From the IMG/VR virus record IMGVR_UViG_3300025015_000014, positions 68,787 through 132,786 of that record: DNA of 64,000 nt; one strand, 5' to 3'. Shown piece after piece: positions 26,188 to 62,323 of the stretch. The stretch comes from a virus. Positions within the stretch are counted from its first letter, which is position 1. Every line of letters starts with the position of its first letter. The notes beneath the pieces are model-generated. The model did no database searches. It was not told where the DNA came from and saw only the letters and a program-made list of their open reading frames with translations. A program made the translations under genes and the position numbers.

Positions 26188-26260
26188 GGCTCGTTAGCTC
26201 TGATGGTCAGAGCGTTCCGTTGAAGCCGGAAAGAATCCTGTTCGATCCAGGAACGAGCCA
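26188..26260 (+). tRNA. tRNA-Phe(GAA)
   Basis: TTCCG TTGAAGC CGGAA. Confidence 0.85.
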
Positions 26261-26270
26261 CCCTTTCCTT

Positions 26271-26360
26271 GGAAGAACGCCGGACATTGGTGGGCCGGGC
26301 CTGTCTCGAAAGCAGGTTCCCGTAATACACGGGATGCGAGTTCGATTCTCGCTTCTTCCG
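26271..26360 (+). tRNA. tRNA-Ser(CGA)
   Basis: Loop CTCGAAA; long variable arm. Confidence 0.85.
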
Positions 26361-27177: not shown

Positions 27178-27253
27178 GGGAGTGAAGGCTTGAGGGTAAG
27201 CCGCCGGCCTCCAAAACCGGAAACAGTGAGTTCGATCCTCACCACTCCCGCCA
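27178..27253 (+). tRNA. tRNA-Trp(CCA)
   Basis: Loop CTCCAAA; encoded CCA. Confidence 0.85.
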
Positions 27254-42172: not shown

Positions 42173-43231
42173 TCATCCAAAGAAGTCCAAAACCGTGGGT
42201 TGCTTAAGGGGCGGTGTCAAATTCACCCCCTTGCGAAAAAATACCACGGGTTCCGAGCGGTACAGGCCGGAAGAAGCCTTGTTATACTGATGCTGCGAAA
42301 GCAGCATCTGCCAGACAAAATGCCCAATGAACACGCGACTAGCAAGCTGCACTACCGTCGTCAACATATTGGGGTTGACGTTTAGCACAAGCCACCCTCT
42401 GTCAGATAACAACCGGTGTGCGTGCCATATCAAAGGCCAAAGGAACCCAGCCTCCCATTGTTCTTGAGTAGGGTATCGCAAGTAGGATTGTCCAGCATCC
42501 TCAGAATACTTTTCGACGTTGAAATACGGAGGGCTAGTAAGAACCAAGTCTGGGGTCACACCCAGGCTTGGCATCAAGTCTTCGGCACATCCGTCAAGGA
42601 GACTAACTTGAAAGGTTGTGTTCACCTTAGCTGCCAAGTCCCGGAAGAATTCTCGGTTCCTGTTTTGGGCTTCTTGATGGGGATCAACACCCACATATCG
42701 AACTTTGGCGGCCATGGCTCCGAACAATCGGCCGCCCCAACCCGCACAAGGATCCATTACCGTCTTGGCCCCGACATACTCAATGATGCTTTTGGCCACG
42801 GTGGGTCGGAAGTTGGACACCCGTTGGGTTCGCCGCAAGGCATAAATGCTTTTTCGGATGCCCCAGGGCTTCAGGTTGTCTCCATACCGGATCCGTTTAC
42901 GGATGGCCTCCCGCAACAAAGCGTCATCAGCAAAAACCTCCAGCGGGGTCATAAACCCACGACACCGCACCCCCAACATCTCGGGGTGGTAGGAATTGAT
43001 AATCCCTAAACCCACCATGGATTGCCGGATCACTCCGGTATCTATGTCGATACAGGAAGGAGTGGCCACCAGTTTGAGGTACTCCTGTTCCAGGTTCTCT
43101 TTTGCATACGCGGGGTAGGGGAACCCATTGGTCCGGAGTTGTTGAAAGACCTGATCTTCCAGGAATTGCTCCTCGGAGGAGTTTCGGCCCGGCCGGTTCT
43201 TTCGGAAGTCAATCTGGTCCAGGGACAGCAT
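42173..43231 (-). CDS. SAM-dependent amino-DNA methyltransferase
   Basis: DPCAGWGGR (SAM binding) and TSPPY. Confidence 0.8.
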   Translation of the reverse strand: MLSLDQIDFRKNRPGRNSSEEQFLEDQVFQQLRTNGFPYPAYAKENLEQEYLKLVATPSCIDIDTGVIRQSMVGLGIINSYHPEMLGVRCRGFMTPLEVFADDALLREAIRKRIRYGDNLKPWGIRKSIYALRRTQRVSNFRPTVAKSIIEYVGAKTVMDPCAGWGGRLFGAMAAKVRYVGVDPHQEAQNRNREFFRDLAAKVNTTFQVSLLDGCAEDLMPSLGVTPDLVLTSPPYFNVEKYSEDAGQSYLRYPTQEQWEAGFLWPLIWHAHRLLSDRGWLVLNVNPNMLTTVVQLASRVFIGHFVWQMLLSQHQYNKASSGLYRSEPVVFFRKGVNLTPPLKQPTVLDFFG

Positions 43232-44591: not shown

Positions 44592-45182
44592 TCATAGCCG
44601 GAGGACCTTGTCTGGAAGTACCTGGAAAGCCCATCGCTCCCCCGTCTTGAAGAACCTTTGAGCAGCCTGAGCCAAATAGCTCGACACCATTCCGATGAAA
44701 GGGAGATGCTCCCCGTTCTCGCAAGTGGCCTGCCCCTCCCCCGCCTCGTCGGGCTTGAACTGTTCAGTCCAGACGACCCGTCCAATAGTACCCTCAGCAC
44801 CCAGACAACCATGAAGGCAAGGAATCCCCATAGGCTTGACGAACCCCTGGATGACCCTGCGGGCCTCCGCATTGTCGGTGCAGTCAATGACCAAAGCAGC
44901 ACCACCCAGGAGGGCCTCAGCATTGTCCGAAGTGAGCCGATGAGGGATTGCCTCCACCCTGACCCCAAACATTCCCTGGAGAGCTTGCTGGAACGCCTGG
45001 GCCTTGTTCCGACCCACGCCCATCGTGGTGTGAAACTGGGACATGACGTTCTTTTTCTCGACCCGGTCGAAGTCACAAACCCGAATCGGGTAAAGGCCCA
45101 CCGGGCAGGCCCAGTTACGGAGAAGGAGTCCCAGGTGTGACCCAAGTGCTCCGACTCCGACGATGACGATAGGGGGCTTCAT
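44592..45182 (-). CDS. ThiF/E1-like ubiquitin-like activating enzyme
   Basis: IVGVGALGS, DFDRVEKKN, NKA, IDCTDN...R, TCE; GGAG SD at MKPP. Confidence 0.88.
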   Translation of the reverse strand: MKPPIVIVGVGALGSHLGLLLRNWACPVGLYPIRVCDFDRVEKKNVMSQFHTTMGVGRNKAQAFQQALQGMFGVRVEAIPHRLTSDNAEALLGGAALVIDCTDNAEARRVIQGFVKPMGIPCLHGCLGAEGTIGRVVWTEQFKPDEAGEGQATCENGEHLPFIGMVSSYLAQAAQRFFKTGERWAFQVLPDKVLRL

Positions 45183-45222
45183 GGTCCCACTCCTCACAGA
45201 CACTACTCTAAACCACCGTCAT

Positions 45223-45594
45223 CTAAGCCGTTGCTGTCCAGCGGTTGTTGGGATTGCTTTTGACCCCCCGGAAGTCTCGGGTCAGTTCTCGATGTTTGGC
45301 TTGGAACCCCTGGGCCACCAAGGCGGCTCGAATGACAGGGGCCGGGACATGTAACCTGAAGTTGAGACACTGAACATCGTTGTGATCGAACTGGGTCTCA
45401 CCACTGTCCCGAAGTTCCTTTGTAAAGGCTTCCAAGGACGAATAGACAGGGTCGTTCGGATCCTTCAACCCGAACCGCTCATCTTCCCCCATCCAATCGA
45501 CCGGCTCCTTTCGCATGAGGCGCCGTTCGAGCCGGTCTTCTTCCCGTTCCTCTTCACGGATAGCATCGTAAGGGATGTAGGAAAGGCGTCCCAT
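45223..45594 (-). CDS. hypothetical protein
   Basis: 123 aa with its own promoter motif. Confidence 0.6.
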   Translation of the reverse strand: MGRLSYIPYDAIREEEREEDRLERRLMRKEPVDWMGEDERFGLKDPNDPVYSSLEAFTKELRDSGETQFDHNDVQCLNFRLHVPAPVIRAALVAQGFQAKHRELTRDFRGVKSNPNNRWTATA

Positions 45595-45601
45595 GCCCCT
45601 A

Positions 45602-45964
45602 CTACGCAGAGGAGCATGGGCCTAAGCCACGGCACTTAGACCCGAATGGCGTTTTCGGTCTAATTATGAGTCTCGATGGCATCGGCGGATCTGCCGTGGC
45701 CGGAAACCGATCCACCACGAAATCCTTCAACTCGGCTGTCGCGTCCATCTTGATCCCCGGCACGTAGCCAGCCCGGATTCCCTCCTGGGCGATGCGGAGT
45801 ATCTCAACGTCCGAGGAATCGTAAAGCACCGCATCCGGGTTGTCCCCGTTCTGACCGGCCCAGGTAATGTTGAGCACCGCCTGATCGGCCCGAATCTGAA
45901 TCGCCGCCTTTGGACCGGCTACGATATCCTCTACTGCCTGGTCCATTTCTTTGTCTGCCTTCAT
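45602..45964 (-). CDS. putative ubiquitin-like (beta-grasp) protein
   Basis: Small; LNITW first strand, helix, terminal strand LIIRPKTPFG then a 12-aa tail; lies between JAB and E1. Confidence 0.55.
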   Translation of the reverse strand: MKADKEMDQAVEDIVAGPKAAIQIRADQAVLNITWAGQNGDNPDAVLYDSSDVEILRIAQEGIRAGYVPGIKMDATAELKDFVVDRFPATADPPMPSRLIIRPKTPFGSKCRGLGPCSSA

Positions 45965-46027
45965 CGGAGCACCTTCCTTCCCTTGCGAGAAATTCCCGCA
46001 TCCTTTTCTACTCGAAACCCGTTCCGG

Positions 46028-46405
46028 CTAAGCCCCAGATCGTCGCCGAAGTTCAGCCAGCCCCGCGAAATGCCCCTCTTCATACGTGGGATTCACTTGA
46101 ACATATTCCTCTGTCACACGGTTGAACACGTAGTAGCGCACGTCATTGAACGTGACCACCGGCCACAACAACAACCGACCCAAACCCTTTTCAAGTGCTC
46201 GCCATGTAGTCGTGTCGGTGTTCGAAGGGGCCGCCGGGCCAGCCCAGGGGTGCGTGTGGGCAACCCCACCAATCTCTTCTCGGTGTTCCCATAGGAAAGT
46301 CCAAAGGTCATGGCTATCCGGGAGGTAGGTTCCTGTAGTACCTTGCGGGTCGTGCCACAACAACGTCTGGCCTTCTCGGTTGAACACGACAGCCACTTCG
46401 TGCAT
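46028..46405 (-). CDS. JAB/MPN+ metalloprotease
   Basis: E...HTHP....PSxxD; start adjusted to MHEVAV (GGAGAGG SD). Confidence 0.85.
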   Translation of the reverse strand: MHEVAVVFNREGQTLLWHDPQGTTGTYLPDSHDLWTFLWEHREEIGGVAHTHPWAGPAAPSNTDTTTWRALEKGLGRLLLWPVVTFNDVRYYVFNRVTEEYVQVNPTYEEGHFAGLAELRRRSGA

Positions 46406-46812
46406 CTGCCTCTCCCCGGAGTAAAGAACCGCGACTCCCTCAGGCATCGGTTGGACGATCATGGGATCAATACGAGAAGCTAAGAGCCTTCCCATTGGCG
46501 TGAGAATGGGTTTGCCCATGCTTTTCACTCCACCGTGCTTCCCGTCTCAGGAAGAACCAACCCGCAACCCGGGCACGTCCAAGTGTTACAGTCCGGGTAC
46601 TCTGTTGTCGCTGGGGTGGCGTGCATTTCACTCTTACACTTAGGGCATTGTCCCGGCCCTGTTTTTATTTGGGATTGAAATCACCTGCTGTTGGCAACCC
46701 TATGAAGCCGTTGGCTCCGATGAAAGTACCGGGGAGTGACTCGCTCAAGGCAACCTGATCGGGTGTCAGGATCCGTTCCTTCAAAGCCCGTGCGAGGAAC
46801 AGATCCATCATT

Positions 46813-47814
46813 TCACGGTTCGTCATTCCCGTCCTCCTCGTCACGATCTGCATCCCAAGCTGGCCTGTCCCCATCGACATGTCGCCAAACCACCAACTTA
46901 TGCCGACGGATGGCTTCAGCAACTACAGCAGGTAGGCTTTCGAGAGTGAAGAAAGTGTCCCCCTTGGTGCCCAGATGGTCATCCAAGCAGACCCCGGCAT
47001 CAATTACCCGGAGGGTCTTGGCATCAACCACACACTCCAGTCGCCGGTTGTGTGTTCGATACTGGACCACTATCTCTCCCTTGTTATGCGAGGGCCGACA
47101 AGCCAAGAGTTCAGACCCCGACACCGCAAGAGCCGCCTTTGCTGCTGTCTCAAAGTCCATCGCAGCCATTGCCCGTCGGCCAAGCCCGGTACCCAGACTC
47201 TGCATGGCTTCCTGACGTTTCCCTTCCAGAACACGTTGCTTGGCTTCCTCAGCCCGGATCCGTTCCAGTTCCTTCCGACGCTCTTCAGCTTTGACCCTTT
47301 GGTGAATCACCCATCGGAAAGCCAAATCCAAAGCCGGGGTCACTTGGGGGATGTTTCCCACTGAGTCCTTGCGATCCAGATAGGCGGCAAGAACTGCCCC
47401 TTCTGGCCCCAAAGGGAACTCCTGTCGGATGTAAACCCATTGGTCATTACCATGTTGAACAACCAGGGCACGAGTGAAATGTTCTAGCCCAGGCTCTACA
47501 AGGAACACGGGTTTCGTTTGTTCGATGAGTTTGGCCGGGTCTGTTTCGACCCGAGCCTTGTCTGGAATGAGCCGATTACCGACCAGATAGCCCCGAAGTG
47601 GGGTTCGCCCCGTTTCAAAACCGGCGGGCATTTCGGCCGGACTTTGAAGAGTCGCTTTTCGTCCCCCGGTTACTGTAAAGGAGAACCACCCGTGTTCCTC
47701 CGGGAGTTTCCCCTGGATTTTCCACACACGGGACCGGTCACTGATTTCCCTTCCACCGAGCCAGGGTAGAACCCTGACTTCGGTTTCCGGTTGCAGTAGG
47801 TCTTCCCAGCCCAC
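46813..47814 (-). CDS. protein with putative divergent E2-like C-terminal domain
   Basis: DAGVCLDDH...TLESLPAVV echoes the E2 G-x-(I/V)-C-L...T(L/I) pattern; context supports it. Confidence 0.5.
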   Translation of the reverse strand: MGWEDLLQPETEVRVLPWLGGREISDRSRVWKIQGKLPEEHGWFSFTVTGGRKATLQSPAEMPAGFETGRTPLRGYLVGNRLIPDKARVETDPAKLIEQTKPVFLVEPGLEHFTRALVVQHGNDQWVYIRQEFPLGPEGAVLAAYLDRKDSVGNIPQVTPALDLAFRWVIHQRVKAEERRKELERIRAEEAKQRVLEGKRQEAMQSLGTGLGRRAMAAMDFETAAKAALAVSGSELLACRPSHNKGEIVVQYRTHNRRLECVVDAKTLRVIDAGVCLDDHLGTKGDTFFTLESLPAVVAEAIRRHKLVVWRHVDGDRPAWDADRDEEDGNDEP

Positions 47815-47842
47815 GGCTATCCTTTCCGGGTTGCTGGCTAGA

Positions 47843-48130
47843 CTAGGTCACCGAGATGCCTTTGCTTCTCAAGAAGGCATGGACCTTCGTAGGATCGTCT
47901 GTCCAGGTTTGGGTTTTCGTTCCGTCATCTACCAGTCCGCAAGCCTGAGCCACCTTTGGGAATGCCTTTTGGAGGGTGCTTTCCAAAACACCTTTGAGAT
48001 GACTTTGGTTGCACGTCTTGGCCCACCCGGCTGTCACAGCAACGAACCCCTGCTCTTTCTTCTGCCGGTCGATTTCAGCCAGCACCCACTTCTTCAGGGC
48101 AACAAAAACAGGCTTGGGCAATACAGTCAT
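47843..48130 (-). CDS. hypothetical protein
   Basis: AAGGAG SD and promoter motif. Confidence 0.6.
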   Translation of the reverse strand: MTVLPKPVFVALKKWVLAEIDRQKKEQGFVAVTAGWAKTCNQSHLKGVLESTLQKAFPKVAQACGLVDDGTKTQTWTDDPTKVHAFLRSKGISVT

Positions 48131-48196
48131 CTCAACTCTCCTTGCCCTCTTCTACGCGGGAGGATCCGGAACTAAGCCCGGACTCCCCGTGATAGG

Positions 48197-50071
48197 TCAA
48201 GCAGCCCAGGCGGGCTTGGCCAGGAGTTCCGTCCTGAGAATCTCCTCAACCAGGGTCTTCTGCACGGCCCTACGAGCAGCCGCCTTGACCGGAGTCGAGG
48301 CAATCAGATGACGAAGAATCCGGGGAATGGCATAGGCATCCTGTCCCTCAAACATCTTCTCTGAGATGTCAAAACACGGGATTCCCATCTGAAGAGCCGT
48401 CCACCGAACGATCTCCCCATCCTGGCCGGGAACCTTCAAGAGTCCAAAGGCCACCGGATTGACTCCCATCTGTCGGATGGTCTCTGCCAATCGGGTGTTG
48501 TTCGACTCGCCTTCGTCCCCAATGAAAAGGAACAGGGCGTCCTCATCCGGTCCCGGCTTGTGCCCCGCCAAAGCCTGCACACCCTCATGGTAGTACGTTC
48601 CACCACCAGCCGTGTGCCCCTTGAATGCCTGGGCCACAGCAGCAGCCGAAGCCGCCTTGAGAGTGACCTCAGACCCGACCGTGTTGAACACGGAAACATG
48701 CAACCGATCCAGAGGGAACCCCACCAAGAGCCGGGTCAGATACCCCTTGGCAGCCTCCAGTGAGTTGTGCATGGACCCGGACTTGTCCACCACGCAGTAC
48801 ACCCGCAAACCCCGAGTGACTTCCTCCAAAGCCTTTGCCGTGGCCTTGTCAGCCACATCCTGGAGCTTCTCAGCCGTTTCGGTCTTGCGAACCCTTTGAG
48901 CAATGTTCGCCGCCCTTTGGTCCGTAGCCTTCTTGGTGGCTTCCGTCCATTGAGCCGACACCCCCGGATCCTGAAGCAAACCCAGTTCTTCCAGGGTCGG
49001 AGTCAAGATGATTAAGTCAGAGTGGGACAGGCCACCTGCCTCAATGGCACAAGCCATGATGGCCCGAGTCACACCAACAGTTGCCGGGAGCATTCCGACG
49101 ATCCGCTTCCAGTTGGGCTTGTCCTTCTTGATCCGGTTGCAGATCTGACGTTCGGTCAAACCCTCCCAGGATTCAGCCTGAGCTACCTCAGCCCCAATGG
49201 CCATACCACGACGACCATCCTTTGACTGTTTCTGCTTCCACCGAAGAGCCTGAAAGAACCCGAGGCTCCCCGGCTTGTAGCCGATCCGGGCACAGAGCCG
49301 CTTGACAGTCGAACGGAAGCCTGCCTTGACAAGCCCCTCCAACATCCTGGGGTTGTTCTCCCGGAAACGGAGCCACTTCTGGATGGCCTTCGAGTAACGA
49401 CCCATGAATGGTTCACGAGCCGACTTGCCAAATCCGAGGTCACGGTTGATTGCCGCAACCTGGGGCAGAGCCAGAAGATCCCCGACCCGGATCAGGAGCT
49501 TTGGGTTGAGATCCTTCTTGCCGTCACGTAGCAGGAACATGGCCTCGCCCACATCCCTGAAGTCATCATCATGGAACTCGATCTTTCCATCGGTACCCTT
49601 GACCGGTTCACCCTTGCGACCCTGAACCAGCATGAAAGCTGCCAAGGCCGTCTTCAGATCCCGGTTGTCCTGAGCAAAGGCCCAGGAGGCCCACCGGGCC
49701 GCAAACTCGTTGTCGAGTTTGTAGACTTCGGCGATCTGGCCGTACACGTATGCCGCGACTTCAGGGAAGATCCCCGGCATCTGGAAACGGGCAACGACCT
49801 GGTTATTTTCCTTGACCTTGCCGTCGATCCCCAAAACACCAACACGAGTACGAATGGACTTCTTGCCGACCTTGGACAACTTGTAGACGACCTTGACCTT
49901 GGGTTCGCCCTCTTCCTTCCAAGAGGCAGGTTCCCACTTGGCCCCAACAGGGGAACCCTGATCTGGGATTACGATGCCGGGTCGATTGTGTACCATATGG
50001 TCAACGATGCCTGTGAGGGTCTGAAGGATCCGTTCTGCCGGGCCGAGGGTTTCAATTCGCTTCTGGTCCAT
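48197..50071 (-). CDS. Ro60/TROVE-like helical domain plus C-terminal vWA protein
   Basis: 624 aa, basic helical N-region, MIDAS VVDKSGSM...GGT...IGDE. The vWA call is firm; TROVE is inferred from architecture and the adjacent RNAs. Confidence 0.65.
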   Translation of the reverse strand: MDQKRIETLGPAERILQTLTGIVDHMVHNRPGIVIPDQGSPVGAKWEPASWKEEGEPKVKVVYKLSKVGKKSIRTRVGVLGIDGKVKENNQVVARFQMPGIFPEVAAYVYGQIAEVYKLDNEFAARWASWAFAQDNRDLKTALAAFMLVQGRKGEPVKGTDGKIEFHDDDFRDVGEAMFLLRDGKKDLNPKLLIRVGDLLALPQVAAINRDLGFGKSAREPFMGRYSKAIQKWLRFRENNPRMLEGLVKAGFRSTVKRLCARIGYKPGSLGFFQALRWKQKQSKDGRRGMAIGAEVAQAESWEGLTERQICNRIKKDKPNWKRIVGMLPATVGVTRAIMACAIEAGGLSHSDLIILTPTLEELGLLQDPGVSAQWTEATKKATDQRAANIAQRVRKTETAEKLQDVADKATAKALEEVTRGLRVYCVVDKSGSMHNSLEAAKGYLTRLLVGFPLDRLHVSVFNTVGSEVTLKAASAAAVAQAFKGHTAGGGTYYHEGVQALAGHKPGPDEDALFLFIGDEGESNNTRLAETIRQMGVNPVAFGLLKVPGQDGEIVRWTALQMGIPCFDISEKMFEGQDAYAIPRILRHLIASTPVKAAARRAVQKTLVEEILRTELLAKPAWAA

Positions 50072-50206
50072 GTTGTTTCCTCCGTCGTTCCAGCCTGCTC
50101 TCCCGAGTCAGGCGGATGTTGTTGTCCCCCTCCCCCGCAGGGGAAAGGAACGAGTGAGGTTCCTGCCGGTCTACCCGAAACTCGAACGAACTAAGCCCAT
50201 AAATGC

Positions 50207-50247
50207 AAAACGGGGCAGCCATCCAGTGAGGGTGACTGCCCCGTTTT
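50207..50247. terminator. bidirectional intrinsic terminator
   Basis: aaaacggggcag...ctgccccgtttt, downstream of the ncRNA array. Confidence 0.7.
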
Positions 50248-50257
50248 AGGGTCTCTC

Positions 50258-50337
50258 GGCGAACGAGAAAAGGGGGGGTGTTTGAACCCGCTACCGATTG
50301 AGATATCTACGCTTATCCACCCACTTGATTGTGCGCC
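50258..50337 (-). ncRNA. Y-RNA-like RNA D
   Basis: GGCGCAC-AATC ... TCTC-GTTCGCC terminal helix. Confidence 0.6.
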
Positions 50338-50344
50338 AAAACTA

Positions 50345-50489
50345 TGGAAGCCCCTGCCAGGATTTGAACCTGGGCCTCATTGCGTGTGTGCTTCCGAGAT
50401 TGTGTCTCCCCGCAGGAAGAAACGAGTACGAAAGCGGTGTGCTTGTTCAGCCTTGGATGGGCTGCGCTCTACCATTGAGCTACAGGGGC
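50345..50489 (-). ncRNA. tRNA-like RNA E with permuted Y-like helix in the variable arm
   Basis: GCCCCTG/CAGGGGC acceptor, D and T arms, loop CATCCAA, ~70-nt insert ACTC-GT...AC-AATC. Confidence 0.7.
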
Positions 50490-50494
50490 AAAGA

Positions 50495-50817
50495 ACGAAC
50501 CCAAAATGGAGATCCTGACCGAGGGGGATTGTTTAGGCCCCCCACCGCCTCATGCAGTCACGTTATTCCGGCACATCCCCTACGGCGGTTGATCGGACCA
50601 CCATCAAAAGGGTCGGCAGGCTTTTACCTGCACAGAAGGGTGCTCAAACCAATAAACCCCTCTGCCCGACTGATTGGGTAAAGAACCGCACTAACCCCAA
50701 CAGTCTGCCGTTACACTTCCGCACAAGTTGGACCAGTCCGGTTCTTGTTGACTGTGCCTTCCTGCGAGCAGCAGGTAGATTTTCAGCCACCAGTCAGAAG
50801 CTCCATTCTGGGTTCGT
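50495..50817 (-). ncRNA. ~320-nt structured RNA of unknown family
   Basis: ACGAACCCAGAATGGAG pairs with CTCCATTTTGGGTTCGT at the two ends. Confidence 0.6.
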
Positions 50818-50879
50818 GCTGCCTAAGGGTTTGTACCTGAGCGTTTAGCCCGTGGTACTCGAAGCACCAAAAGAATTGA

Positions 50880-51008
50880 GGGCACGCGAGAGGACAGGCT
50901 GTTTTTGTTGCATTTAGTCGGATTTGAACCGACGACATTCACCGTGTAAAGGGTAACGCCCTACCAACTGGGCTATAAACGCTTGTTAGCCTGCCCGATT
51001 GCGTGCCT
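50880..51008 (-). ncRNA. Y-RNA-like RNA A enclosing a tRNA-Val(TAC)-like core
   Basis: GGCACGC-AATC-GGGCAGGCT / AGCCTGTCC-TCTC-GCGTGCC around D, anticodon and T arms. Confidence 0.75.
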
Positions 51009-51059
51009 CAGAGGGGCAAGCACTTTTCAAGGTGCTTGCCCCAGATCAAAAAAGGTCTT

Positions 51060-51199
51060 GGAGCACGAGAGGGCAGGCTGTTTAGTTCCCTCCCCTTACG
51101 GGGAAAGAATGCAGTCGGAGTTGAACCGACAACTTTCAACTTGGCAGGTTGATGCTCTACCAACTGAGCTTTGCTTGTTAGCCTACCTGATTGTGCTCC
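51060..51199 (-). ncRNA. Y-RNA-like RNA B enclosing a tRNA-Gly(GCC)-like core
   Basis: GGAGCAC-AATC-AGGTAGGCT / AGCCTGCCC-TCTC-GTGCTCC; GCTCAGTTGGTAGAGC; GGTTCAACTCC. Confidence 0.75.
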
Positions 51200-51245
51200 T
51201 CGGCAGACCCGACAAGACTGTTTCACCTGTTCGGGTCTAATGTTT

Positions 51246-51346
51246 GGGGCACGCGAGAAGAAAGGCTGTTTTTGCACTCTTCCTGTAATGGTAAGAAGTG
51301 GGCGTTTTTCACACCCGGCTTGTTAGCCTTTCCGATTGCGTGCCTT
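51246..51346 (-). ncRNA. Y-RNA-like RNA C (no tRNA core)
   Basis: GGCACGC-AATC-GGAAAGGCT / AGCCTTTCT-TCTC-GCGTGCC. Confidence 0.7.
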
Positions 51347-51348
51347 AG

Positions 51349-51479
51349 TGGGGTTGCTAGGATTCGAACCTAGATTGCTTGTATGCCTTTGCGGGTGTTC
51401 CCCCGAAGAGGAACGAGAACAAAGGCGGTTGTTTTGCTTCATTATGTTTGAAGTGCCTTTTCCATTAGGCTACAACCCC
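51349..51479 (-). ncRNA. tRNA-like RNA F with permuted Y-like helix in the variable arm
   Basis: GGGGTTG/CAACCCC acceptor, loop AACATAA, insert GCCTTTGT-TCTC-GTTCC-hairpin-GGAAC-ACCC-GCAAAGGC, T arm. Confidence 0.7.
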
Positions 51480-51583
51480 ATTGAGGAACTCGGGTTTCAA
51501 GTTGTCAGCCTCCCCGTAGGGAGGAAGCACGACGGGGGAGGCATGAAGCATCCCCAGTACCTACTACTCTAACGCGGCAAGCT

Positions 51584-52480
51584 CTAAGCCGTCAAGATAT
51601 TTGTTGCGATGATTCGGGCGGCTTCGGAAGCCTCAGCCCAGGACAGCTTCTGTCCTCGCGGGGATCCGCCGATACTCTCTCGGCCACCCCAGCCTTCGGG
51701 TGCAAGTTTGGACCAGACGTTCTTGAGCCCGCCAGGTCCGAACAGGGCTTCTGCCTTTTCCGTAGACGGGCACCCCACCGTGATGTTGCCCTGTGGGGTC
51801 AAGGCTACGATTACGGGAGCCACCTCCGCGTACCATACGTCGAACCCCCATACTTCGGACTCCAGACAGGCAACCTTGCCGAAAACTTCCCTTCGCACAA
51901 AGGAACGGGCTTTGATCACCCGTTCCGCCTCTTCAGCCTTGACCGCTTCAATCAAAGCCTTTGGGGTGCGGCTCAACAGGGATCGCCATCTTGACACCCC
52001 TGCGTAGAATTCCAAGGCATCCTGTGTCGAACCTCCTGTTTGGTTCCACAGAAGAAGCAGGCACCCTTCCGGGGTTTCTTCCTGTCGGATACCAATGGGA
52101 TTCGTGTCCACTTGATTGATCAAAGTGGTCAACGTCAAGAGGTCGCGGGTCATTGAAGTCCGAACTGGCGGGGGTGCCTTTTCGAACTCCCCAACCCGTG
52201 AGGGGTGGGGAAGCAATCCTGCCAGAGAGGCGATGCAGAAACAGGCATCCGCATCAGCGGCCCCCGTCACAACGAAGCTGGGGTCTTCCCGTCGAACCCC
52301 AAAGTGATCCCGATAGGCCCTGAGGGCTACACCCTCAAGGTGTGAGAAGGAACCGTGATGGTCCATCTCCAAAGGACCAACCACGCTTCCATGTTCCCCA
52401 AAGGAACACTCGATGGGTTCCCAGCCTGCGGCAGCTAGTTCGCGGGCTTCTTCAATCTCGTTCGTGTGTTTGATTCGCAT
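51584..52480 (-). CDS. DHH-like phosphoesterase-related protein
   Basis: MDHHG, ADAD, WGGRESIGGSPR. Confidence 0.55.
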   Translation of the reverse strand: MRIKHTNEIEEARELAAAGWEPIECSFGEHGSVVGPLEMDHHGSFSHLEGVALRAYRDHFGVRREDPSFVVTGAADADACFCIASLAGLLPHPSRVGEFEKAPPPVRTSMTRDLLTLTTLINQVDTNPIGIRQEETPEGCLLLLWNQTGGSTQDALEFYAGVSRWRSLLSRTPKALIEAVKAEEAERVIKARSFVRREVFGKVACLESEVWGFDVWYAEVAPVIVALTPQGNITVGCPSTEKAEALFGPGGLKNVWSKLAPEGWGGRESIGGSPRGQKLSWAEASEAARIIATNILTA

Positions 52481-55234: not shown

Positions 55235-55458
55235 TGGGCTGGGGAGGGGGGGTTCGAACCCCCGAGCAGGTCAAATAGAATCAGCAGGGGGTCCAGGATT
55301 TGAACCTGGGATCGAAGGGTCAGAGCCTTCTGCCTTAGACCACTGGGCTGGGGAGGGGGGGTTCGAACCCCCGAGCAGGTCAAATAGAATCAGCAGGGGG
55401 TCCAGGATTTGAACCTGGGATCGAAGGGTCAGAGCCTTCTGCCTTAGACCACTGGGCT
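55235..55458. repeat. exact 109-bp tandem duplication of tRNA-Gln sequence
   Basis: tgggct recurs at 55235, 55344 and 55453 with identical intervening sequence. Confidence 0.9.
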
Positions 55459-56401: not shown

Positions 56402-56406
56402 AATTG

Positions 56407-56781
56407 TGGATCCGCCGGGAGTCGAACCCGGGTCCAGAACGCATTCCTGATCAGGTCCTTCACAGGCTTGTCCGGTGTATTAGTCCCCACATAGCTAGCA
56501 CCGGCACCGCTATGTGGAGGTTCTCGATGCGGAATTCAGTTGGGGCTTTACGAGTTAGCCACCAGTAATCCGCCACCTACGCCCTGTCCGTTTACGCCCC
56601 ATCCGAGAGTCACAGGGTTCCGAGTCTCGGTGGAACGGAGAGGATTAAGCCGCTCGGGCCATCCTCTCGCCTTCGATGTTATCGTTGGCACTTGGTTTTT
56701 GTCACGAGATTTCGGGAGACCGTGACCCCTCCCTGCCTGCACCTTTTCCCTCTTGCGCCCTGTCGAAACCGTTACGGACCC
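56407..56781 (-). ncRNA. ssrA: tmRNA, tag (A)ANDNIEGERMARAA*
   Basis: 5' GGGTCCGTAACGGTTTCGAC; 3' GGACCCGGGTTCGACTCCCGGCGGATCCA with G3-U70; tag ORF 56689-56645. Confidence 0.93.
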
Positions 56782-62248: not shown

Positions 62249-62323
62249 TTGGCCCGAGTGGATTTGAACCACCGATCCCTTGACCCCCAGTCAAGTGCGT
62301 TAACCAGGTTACGCCACGCCCCG
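62249..62323 (-). pseudogene. chimeric tRNA-Pro(GGG) with an Ile-derived 3' end
   Basis: Acceptor CGGGGCG/CGGGCCA is mispaired; the 3' ~25 nt match tRNA-Ile at 60633. Confidence 0.65.

Follow-up and report, generated by a model that had tools for sequence, protein, structure and literature searches.

A Ro60-like ring protein, long-arm tRNA-like RNAs and a ubiquitin-like activation set form a conserved cassette in huge phages and Myxococcota chromosomes

Two reports describe non-coding RNA (ncRNA) genes with tRNA features adjoining bacterial and phage Ro60 genes as a rule (PMC4201824, PMC12135203), and a third describes ROT/TROVE proteins in some jumbo phages (PMC7824862). Proteins with a von Willebrand factor A (vWA) domain that are encoded together with ubiquitin-like protein (Ubl) conjugation sets are also known (Kaur et al. 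2020, PMC7159879). Here we analysed a minus-strand block at 44592-51590 of a 64,000-nucleotide stretch of viral DNA (positions 68,787 to 132,786 of IMG/VR record IMGVR_UViG_3300025015_000014; hereafter the window, meaning the whole stretch). The block encodes a 624-residue Ro60-like ring protein, a 333-residue protein with an invariant cysteine, a JAB metallopeptidase, a Ubl candidate and a ThiF-type E1 activating enzyme, and it is flanked by tRNA-like RNAs with a long variable arm. This combination of RNA and five proteins is a conserved cassette common to huge phages and Myxococcota chromosomes. Because a minimal Ubl pathway lies in the same operon as the ring protein and the RNAs, we interpret the cassette as machinery for RNA surveillance or for Ubl transfer on an RNA scaffold. 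We assign this reading a probability of roughly 45%; the individual biochemical steps, the pairing of RNA with protein and the target are all inferred.

The closest described particles are the ribonucleoproteins (RNPs) of Ro60 (Rsr) with Y RNA or YrlA, including phiRo60 of Thermus phage phiLo with Yrl1/Yrl2 and the TROVE proteins of mycobacteriophage and jumbo phages. Ro60 itself holds Y RNA on the outer face of its ring and takes up the ends of misfolded RNA in the central hole. As in these RNPs, a helical ring is followed by a vWA domain with a metal-ion-dependent adhesion site (MIDAS) in the 624-residue protein, and tRNA-featured ncRNA genes lie right beside the ring gene. Unlike Ro60, the protein has no TROVE profile match, and in the main clade it carries an extra N-terminal beta domain. 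Unlike YrlA, the RNAs are not permuted: they keep the ordinary cloverleaf order, their acceptor ends are open and their variable-arm module is large, and the GNCGAA motif was not seen when the window repeats were read. The cassette also differs from Ro60 RNPs in being joined to E1/JAB/Ubl genes and in having its RNAs in arrays of 1-6.

Among Ubl operons, we take the relevant comparison to be Bil (ISG15-like), Cap2/Cap3 of type II CBASS (cyclic oligonucleotide-based antiphage signalling system) and the E1-E2-JAB-Ubl sets of Iyer, Burroughs and Aravind. The cassette shares with these an E1 with a conserved cysteine, a JAMM peptidase, a tailed Ubl with a terminal glycine and a fourth protein with an invariant cysteine, and its E1 matches PADLOC Cap2 E1-E2 models. 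Unlike in these sets, the fourth protein is not recognisable as an E2 and has barrels resembling the oligonucleotide/oligosaccharide-binding (OB) fold, the E1 is short and standalone, and the whole is tied to a Ro60-like protein and RNA genes in both phages and host chromosomes. Searches of full-text literature, excluding supplements, found no report of Ro60/TROVE together with E1/JAB/Ubl and none of long-variable-arm tRNA-like RNAs in huge phages.

The ring protein belongs to a large family: of the 8,000 candidates that were scored, 1,540 are related to it at E ≤ 0.001, and those listed, 120 in number, share 57-100% identity and lie on contigs of up to 536 kb. An AlphaFold2 model made from 47 sequences (predicted local distance difference test (pLDDT) 88, predicted template-modelling score 0.80) comprises a small beta domain (residues 32-97), a helical domain (103-418) and a vWA domain (420-595). 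Searched against the PDB with Foldseek, this model returned at the top ranks the Ro60 of Thermus phage phiLo (9kop, 9l5y), Xenopus Ro (1yvp, 1yvr, 2i91) and Deinococcus Rsr (2nvo), at E values of 5e-8 to 5e-6 across 531-582 columns, with vWA-only matches ranking below. The structural searches, three in all, agree: TROVE proteins are among the full-length BFVD matches, together with a 'Ro-like RNA binding protein' of a Gordonia phage, and in both libraries the Ro60/TROVE alignments span the helical and vWA domains together. As modelled, the protein has a Ro60-type fold, that is, a helical-repeat ring followed by a C-terminal vWA domain. The vWA domain is matched by Pfam VWA_2 (6e-05), and its MIDAS, a feature that Ro60 proteins have, is intact: D429, S431, S433 and T492 never vary across the 47 sequences, and conservation of D519 is 90% or higher. 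By sequence, the full-length family profile touched RO60 via the vWA domain alone (E 0.011) and TROVE chains at E 1.3. The proposal that this gene encodes a Ro60/TROVE plus vWA protein is supported by structure matches; no sequence profile recognises TROVE in it.

The RNA component is a family of cloverleaf RNAs whose variable arm is a 60-130-nucleotide (nt) module running stem, internal loop, CUCG hairpin and YACA[A/C]GC. Strict regular-expression cloverleaf scans gave many tRNA-dimer false positives, missed true copies and were replaced by a covariance model, built from an alignment of 32 RNAs found by hand scans of related loci; RNAalifold folded this alignment into a cloverleaf with compensatory changes in 15 of 16 pairs. 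The model gave 159 matches at E ≤ 1e-3 in 75 sources (the window plus 74 loci), 87-171 nt long by coordinates, and all except one (158) cover the whole model. Across the 135 distinct sequences, 94.1% of cells are paired, compared with 52.9% in shuffles, and 15 of 16 pairs have changed on both sides. The covariation score is 0.92, whereas shuffled sequences give 0.18 and slid partners no more than 0.25. The variable insert (median 64 nt) contains CUCG in 114 of 126 RNAs and ACA[A/C]G in 124 of 126, and in 106 of 132 RNAs (27 of 132 when shuffled) CUC leads into a perfect stem of 5 bp or more, in 82 different stem sequences. Position 33 is U in 64 of 126 RNAs and there are 42 different 'anticodons'; with U33 in about half of the copies and so many loops, these are not decoding tRNAs. 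The long-arm RNAs apparently constitute a new family that has not been filed. The original prediction had described them as Y-like, which was not supported: they are not YrlA or Y RNA by Rfam, and their cloverleafs are unpermuted and carry the variable-arm module.

Co-occurrence of the ring protein with E1/JAB/Ubl genes, on which the original prediction had offered to be judged, holds strongly in three collections. Using tblastn on 74 IMG/VR loci, we found the 333-residue protein in 68, JAB in 67, Ubl in 66 and ThiF in 63, always downstream of the ring gene, on the same strand and in that order; the misses fall mostly at contig ends. Variable open reading frames (ORFs) and up to ~6-9 kb separate the cassette genes in some of these loci, and ordinary tRNA arrays lie upstream in 55 of the 74. 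Flank counts were made on the 44 distinct loci whose two flanks each measure at least 2.5 kb. A long-arm RNA is present in 40 of these; as copies of one array are not independent, this per-locus count is the fair figure. The flanks hold 103 copies, 101 of them on the gene strand, with 0 of 103 inside the block and 89 no more than 2.5 kb from the block ends, a zone with 31% of the flank bases. The RNAs nearly always sit either immediately ahead of the Ro60-like gene or directly behind ThiF, and in 21 loci the first copy begins 61-153 nt past the ThiF stop. The window's own 132.8-kb contig has two real copies, both beside the ring gene.

The association extends to a phage clade at 25% identity, where 11 loci yielded the 333-residue homologue in 8, ThiF in 9 and RNA model matches upstream of the ring gene in 4; in one of them, L086 (9992-13428), the order is ring protein, 333-residue homologue, JAB and ThiF. 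In the low-GC distant phage clade the ring protein is 517 residues long, and hence without the N-terminal beta domain, and the 333-residue homologue lacks an acidic tail. Two ThiF paralogues each are present in L079 and L082.

We found the same association in a collection of genome contigs. The 71 genome_contigs loci include the 333-residue protein in 65, Ubl in 51, JAB in 50 and ThiF in 47, and the RNA model, run on 58 of the 71, gave 34 matches, again adjoining the block. Matches at 36-42% identity include complete chromosomes of Corallococcus exercitus and C. coralloides, in which cellular genes (UvrD, endonuclease V, GMC oxidoreductase) surround the cassette and tRNAs are absent. Upstream of the ring gene, on the gene strand, ACA[A/C]GC plus a T-arm is present in 20 of 44 lower-identity loci, against a background of 0.005 per 730 nt, and in 10 Corallococcus loci this element lies 175-190 nt from the ring-gene start. 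The model matches, the flank counts and the loci in metagenome-assembled genomes (MAGs) and Corallococcus together tie the tRNA-derived RNAs genetically to the block.

Within genome_contigs, the closest cassette relatives, at 54-60% identity (L088-L111), were on contigs in MAGs that for the most part carry Myxococcota labels (Polyangia, Kofleriaceae, Myxococcales). Phage contigs were probably binned with these genomes, and the labels therefore hint at the host: the huge-phage clade may infect Myxococcota and have the cassette in common with them. In Corallococcus (for example, L126 10900-17300, C. exercitus), ~6 kb of opposite-strand genes encoding a metallophosphoesterase, a GMC oxidoreductase and endonuclease V separate JAB from Ubl-ThiF, and a sigma-70 region-4 protein and large family-less ORFs lie upstream.

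The activation set is recognisable from its catalytic motifs, in agreement with the E1, JAB and Ubl that had been proposed for the block. The E1 scored 87.7 bits with Pfam PF00899 (cut-off 28.1), was also matched by NCBIfam ThiF/MoeB/PRTRC_ThiF models, with ThiF, MoeB and SAMP-E1 as the best families, and matched a PADLOC Cap2-type E1-E2 model at 2.4e-14. It is a bare 203-residue adenylation domain with the nucleotide-binding GxGxxG, the catalytic Asp and the crossover-loop Cys; across 57 sequences, conservation reaches at least 95% at G16/G18/G21, D44, D46, K67, D107-C108-x-D110-N111, R115 and T160-C161. Prok-JAB scored the JAB protein at 23.8 bits, just below the cut-off of 25, with a PADLOC JAB match at 1.4e-3, and the JAMM metal site (E...HxH...S-x-x-D) is intact, E44, H91, H93, S102 and D105 being at least 95% conserved in 55 sequences. 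In the 120-residue Ubl candidate, R102, P103, K104 and G108 are at least 95% conserved (37 sequences for Gly108). Its homologues continue after RPKTPFG for 0, one, two or up to ~40 variable, unrelated residues, and several stop at FG; a conserved RPKTPFG with a variable tail or none is a Ubl signature, with the terminal glycine either ready-made or exposed by a peptidase. Neither Pfam nor NCBIfam matched the Ubl candidate. An ESM Atlas model of it (pLDDT 0.61) had YukD, PB1, UBX and ubiquitin as non-family neighbours at template-modelling scores of 0.38-0.47, which we treat as a lead only.

The fourth protein of the set begins with two OB-like barrels, its N-terminal half looking like OB folds; a long helix follows, then a small alpha/beta domain that contains Cys276, and the protein ends in an acidic tail. 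Within its GVCL motif, G274, C276 and L277 are invariant in 37 close sequences, and C276 (G-x-C) is invariant also in 12 sequences that include homologues of 16-19% identity, in which C261 and H280 are not conserved. Residues 210-305 comprise helices, four strands, the Cys loop and a helix, an order that fits the ubiquitin-conjugating (UBC) fold. The ESM Atlas model was uninformative (pLDDT 0.48), and the family profile found RNase H and Syd alone in the PDB, at E > 0.6. A complex prediction for the Ro60-like and 333-residue proteins scored 0.04 against a mark of 0.32, which, run without controls, speaks neither for nor against binding. The acidic tail finishes ...DEDW in many homologues; it recalls the acidic interaction tips of OB-fold proteins such as SSB, and might serve as a peptide that docks to the MIDAS site or to a partner.

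On the reading that we favour, the ring protein and the adjacent tRNA-like RNAs, its likely partners, would form an RNP. JAB would trim the Ubl tail and expose Gly108, which the E1 would adenylate before holding the Ubl on Cys161; the Ubl might then be handed to Cys276 of the 333-residue protein, whose OB-like barrels could bind RNA. In this scheme the Ro60-like RNP would pick out or retain an RNA, or a target bound to RNA, and modification by the Ubl set would fall on a component or a client of the RNP.

Several observations weigh against this scheme. The TROVE profile (PF05731) did not match the 624-residue protein at E ≤ 0.1, anything in the whole 132.8-kb contig, though Deinococcus and Bacteroides controls matched, or any of 47 family members at E ≤ 1, and a profile of the N-domain only had 0 matches in the PDB. 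Rfam places the RNAs under tRNA alone, with YrlA and Y_RNA unmatched at E ≤ 1 in the window stretch and in L070; a sub-threshold YrlA match in L027 (15851-15905, plus strand; 26.5 bits against a gathering score of 69, E 0.0066) sits between two long-arm copies, downstream of ThiF. For the 333-residue protein, Foldseek found nothing at E ≤ 1e-3 and no UBC/E2 match, and the VIA structural list, filled by the OB-like part, held no UBC/E2 either, both searches having barely probed the C-domain. The window protein matched 0 Pfam families, UQ_con and Prok-E2 included, and no PADLOC model, and 37 family members matched 14 families at E ≤ 1, none of them E2. Thus, of the suggestion that the GVCL protein is a UBC-fold E2, the single invariant cysteine stands, and the fold was not found by Foldseek, VIA or Pfam. 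In addition, 4 of the 44 full-flank loci had no RNA-model match, L086 has no separate Ubl ORF between JAB and ThiF, and much of the linkage in the main clade could be inherited synteny.

A sulfur relay, which we regard as unlikely, would use the same parts differently. The Ubl would be of the ThiS/MoaD/TtuB/Urm1 type, thiocarboxylated after E1 adenylation, with JAB serving its maturation only; the 333-residue protein would pass a persulfide on Cys276 to thiolate tRNAs or tRNA-like RNAs, and the ring would hold the RNA. The systems to compare are, we presume, TtuB/TtuC/TtuA, Urm1/Uba4 and CysO/MoeZ/Mec+, which likewise have a ThiF/MoeB-type E1, a Ubl and a JAB able to trim an extension, and for which tRNA-type RNAs are possible substrates. 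Mec+ matures CysO, a precedent for JAB in a sulfur-carrier system. The best E1 families, the JAB beside a Ubl with a C-terminal extension, the RNA-rich setting of 49 tRNAs plus tRNA-like arrays, and the OB-like barrels and single invariant cysteine of a protein with no E2 match all suit such a relay. Unlike the Ubl sulfur carriers, however, the Ubl ends in FG and not GG, the E1 consists of the adenylation domain alone, and no rhodanese, PP-loop ATPase or thiolase, or cysteine desulfurase was matched by Pfam or NCBIfam in the 13 ORFs scanned in and around the block, although a partner encoded elsewhere is possible.

It is less likely still that the ring protein with its RNAs and the E1/JAB/Ubl/333-residue set (for instance, a Bil-like conjugation or counter-defence system) are unrelated neighbours, adjacent through shared descent or co-regulation and with no joint mechanism. 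The variable ORFs between genes in some loci, and the three opposite-strand genes that split JAB from Ubl-ThiF in Corallococcus, would fit that view. Against it, the order of vWA protein, 333-residue protein, JAB, Ubl and ThiF is kept from 100% down to ~25% identity in phages and chromosomes alike, and the RNA arrays flank the whole block at either end, without a copy inside it and, in the 21 loci mentioned, close after the ThiF stop.

We consider it improbable that the 624-residue protein is no Ro60 relative but a generic helical-repeat and vWA adaptor (vWA-MoxR or Ter-type) that acts as scaffold or substrate of the Ubl set, with the nearby RNAs merely part of the phage tRNA region. The missing TROVE signal in the window protein, contig, N-domain profile and family members speaks for this view, as do the best sequence-profile matches, which are vWA domains of BatA/BatB type. 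According to PMC7159879, vWA proteins occur with complete Ubl-conjugation sets in bacterial conflict systems, and the vWA-MoxR 'FtsH ternary' systems combine a vWA gene with JAB, E1 and Ubl and are enriched in developmentally complex bacteria such as Myxococcota. Here, by contrast, Pfam detected no MoxR ATPase among the block ORFs, and neither an FtsH ATPase nor a RING E3, an EAD1 or a caspase effector was seen; the cassette includes RNA genes, and its vWA domain forms the C-terminal part of a Ro60-like ring. The top structures in two libraries are Ro60/TROVE with both domains aligned at once, and an RNA element is retained upstream even in Corallococcus chromosomes without a tRNA array there. 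A last and highly improbable proposal makes the tRNA-like RNAs the chemical partners of the E1, with the Ubl carboxylate esterified to the cloverleaf 3' end or the RNA itself Ubl-ylated, the ring threading the RNA end and the OB and cysteine protein acting as transferase; if true, the Ubl-charged tRNA-like RNA would represent an RNA-dependent ubiquitin-like transfer system common to myxobacteria and their huge phages.

The source contig of the window has 132,786 bases and is ~25% complete by CheckV. ARAGORN counted 49 tRNA genes and one tmRNA in the window (Rfam gave 52 matches), and the sequence is therefore a fragment of a huge phage. The block had been described as one minus-strand unit of RNAs and genes for a vWA protein, a GVCL protein, a JAB, an RPKTPFG protein and ThiF, and every one of these parts was located (Table 1).

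Table 1 Features of the minus-strand block of the window and its RNA stretch
Feature	Position	Strand	Evidence
ThiF-type E1, 203 aa	44592-45203	-	Pfam ThiF 8.3e-25
Non-conserved 123-aa ORF	45223-45594	-	no family match; no tblastn match in 74 loci
Ubiquitin-like protein candidate, 120 aa	45602-45964	-	RPKTPFG + 12-aa tail
JAMM/JAB metallopeptidase, 166 aa	46028-46528	-	Prok-JAB 4.3e-05
333-aa protein with invariant Cys276	46813-47814	-	OB-like barrels + small alpha/beta domain
Non-conserved 95-aa ORF	47843-48130	-	no family match; no tblastn match in 74 loci
Ro60/TROVE-like 624-aa protein	48197-50071	-	fold model + vWA profile
Terminator-like hairpin	50207-50247	-	between RNA array and Ro60-like gene
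Long-arm tRNA-like RNA, 74-nt variable-arm module	50349-50489	-	Rfam tRNA 52.9 bits
~330-nt structured RNA, 28-bp closing stem	50492-50820	-	z = -5.8
Three tandem D1/D2 repeat units	50868-51353	-	repeat families D1-D5
tRNA-Val(UAC)	50909-50982	-	ARAGORN, Rfam
Decayed tRNA copy, GCC loop, broken acceptor stem	51106-51178	-	ARAGORN, Rfam
Long-arm tRNA-like RNA, 63-nt variable-arm module	51349-51479	-	Rfam tRNA 48.4 bits
Sigma-70-like promoter match, unconfirmed	51566-51595	-	TTGACG-18-TAGAGT, 9/12 matches

Read 5' to 3' on the minus strand, the RNA stretch of the window (50072-51590) runs from the first long-arm RNA through a tRNA-less repeat unit, the decayed copy, tRNA-Val, the 330-nt RNA and the second long-arm RNA to a truncated tRNA-like remnant, identified by eye, and the hairpin. 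About 6-7 elements can be counted, as in the 6-7 ncRNAs first proposed, and the proposed terminator corresponds to the 18-bp terminator-like hairpin, whose 18-nt arms are 89% complementary around a 5-nt loop and are followed by UUUUGCAUUU. The proposed promoters could not be confirmed, since a sigma-70 scan returned 2 sites, one of them that in Table 1, where 1.8 were expected by chance. The first long-arm RNA has a 70-nt insert in the Rfam tRNA match, a fold z of -6.2, 92 bits with the R1 covariance model and the 'anticodon' loop AACAUAA (A33). The second likewise has a 70-nt insert, a cloverleaf plus extra hairpin at z = -3.6, 70.7 bits with the R1 model and the loop CAUCCAA (A33).

The 330-nt RNA ends 3 nt ahead of the second long-arm RNA. 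It contains inverted repeat I1 and folds at a minimum free energy of -157.9 kcal/mol, with 0 of 100 shuffles as stable. No Rfam family matched it, and neither blastn nor nhmmer found a relative by sequence in the 74 loci. A leader for processing (RNase III-type) and a standalone ncRNA are both possible roles. Upstream of it, the mutually complementary motifs D1 (...GGCACGCAAUCGGnnAGGCUAACAAGC) and D2 (AAACAGCCUnnCCUCUCGCGUGCC) are confined, within the window, to the repeat units, which flank tRNA-Val(UAC) and the decayed GCC copy and whose spacers fold at z = -5.8 and -6.0. Their layout, AAACA, stem, UCUCG, hairpin, AAUC, stem and AACAAGC, is, as read from the sequence, that of the variable-arm insert of both long-arm RNAs; because of this analogy we favour a D2...hairpin...D1 pairing over one in which the motifs bracket a tRNA, with three copies only to go by. 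A search of IMG/VR with the D1 motif gave one chance match inside a coding region (L076), which was rejected, as was an RNA-model match at 26228-26360 of the window, a chance match that overlaps ordinary tRNAs.

Elsewhere in the window, three Rfam tRNA matches had no ARAGORN call, at 27178-27250 (plus), 62249-62323 (minus) and 55293-55349 (minus; partial, model positions 9-63), and may be further odd or decayed tRNAs. The tmRNA lies within the tRNA array at 56404-56781 (minus; 129 bits, tag ANDNIEGERMARAA), and the distant-clade locus L082 likewise carries one. A 352-residue protein at 42173-43231 (minus) has a weak DNA-methylase match (N6_N4_Mtase 1.2e-4; phrog_12517 5e-15) and lies between tRNA-Met and a second tRNA-Val(UAC); in virus Rctr197k, the corresponding place after ThiF is taken by a 354-residue ORF and a tRNA-Met.

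Ro60-Y RNA particles and Ubl conjugation have each been well studied, and here they are locked in one operon with dedicated tRNA-like RNAs. As conservation spans cultivable Corallococcus strains and 500-kb phages, the cassette offers a tractable model, in Corallococcus or by heterologous expression, that could address the role of bacterial Ro60-type rings, the purpose of tRNA mimicry and Ubl chemistry directed by or at RNA. Its distribution points to huge phages borrowing from their hosts a system for RNA handling or conflict, which would be relevant to the arms race over tRNAs.

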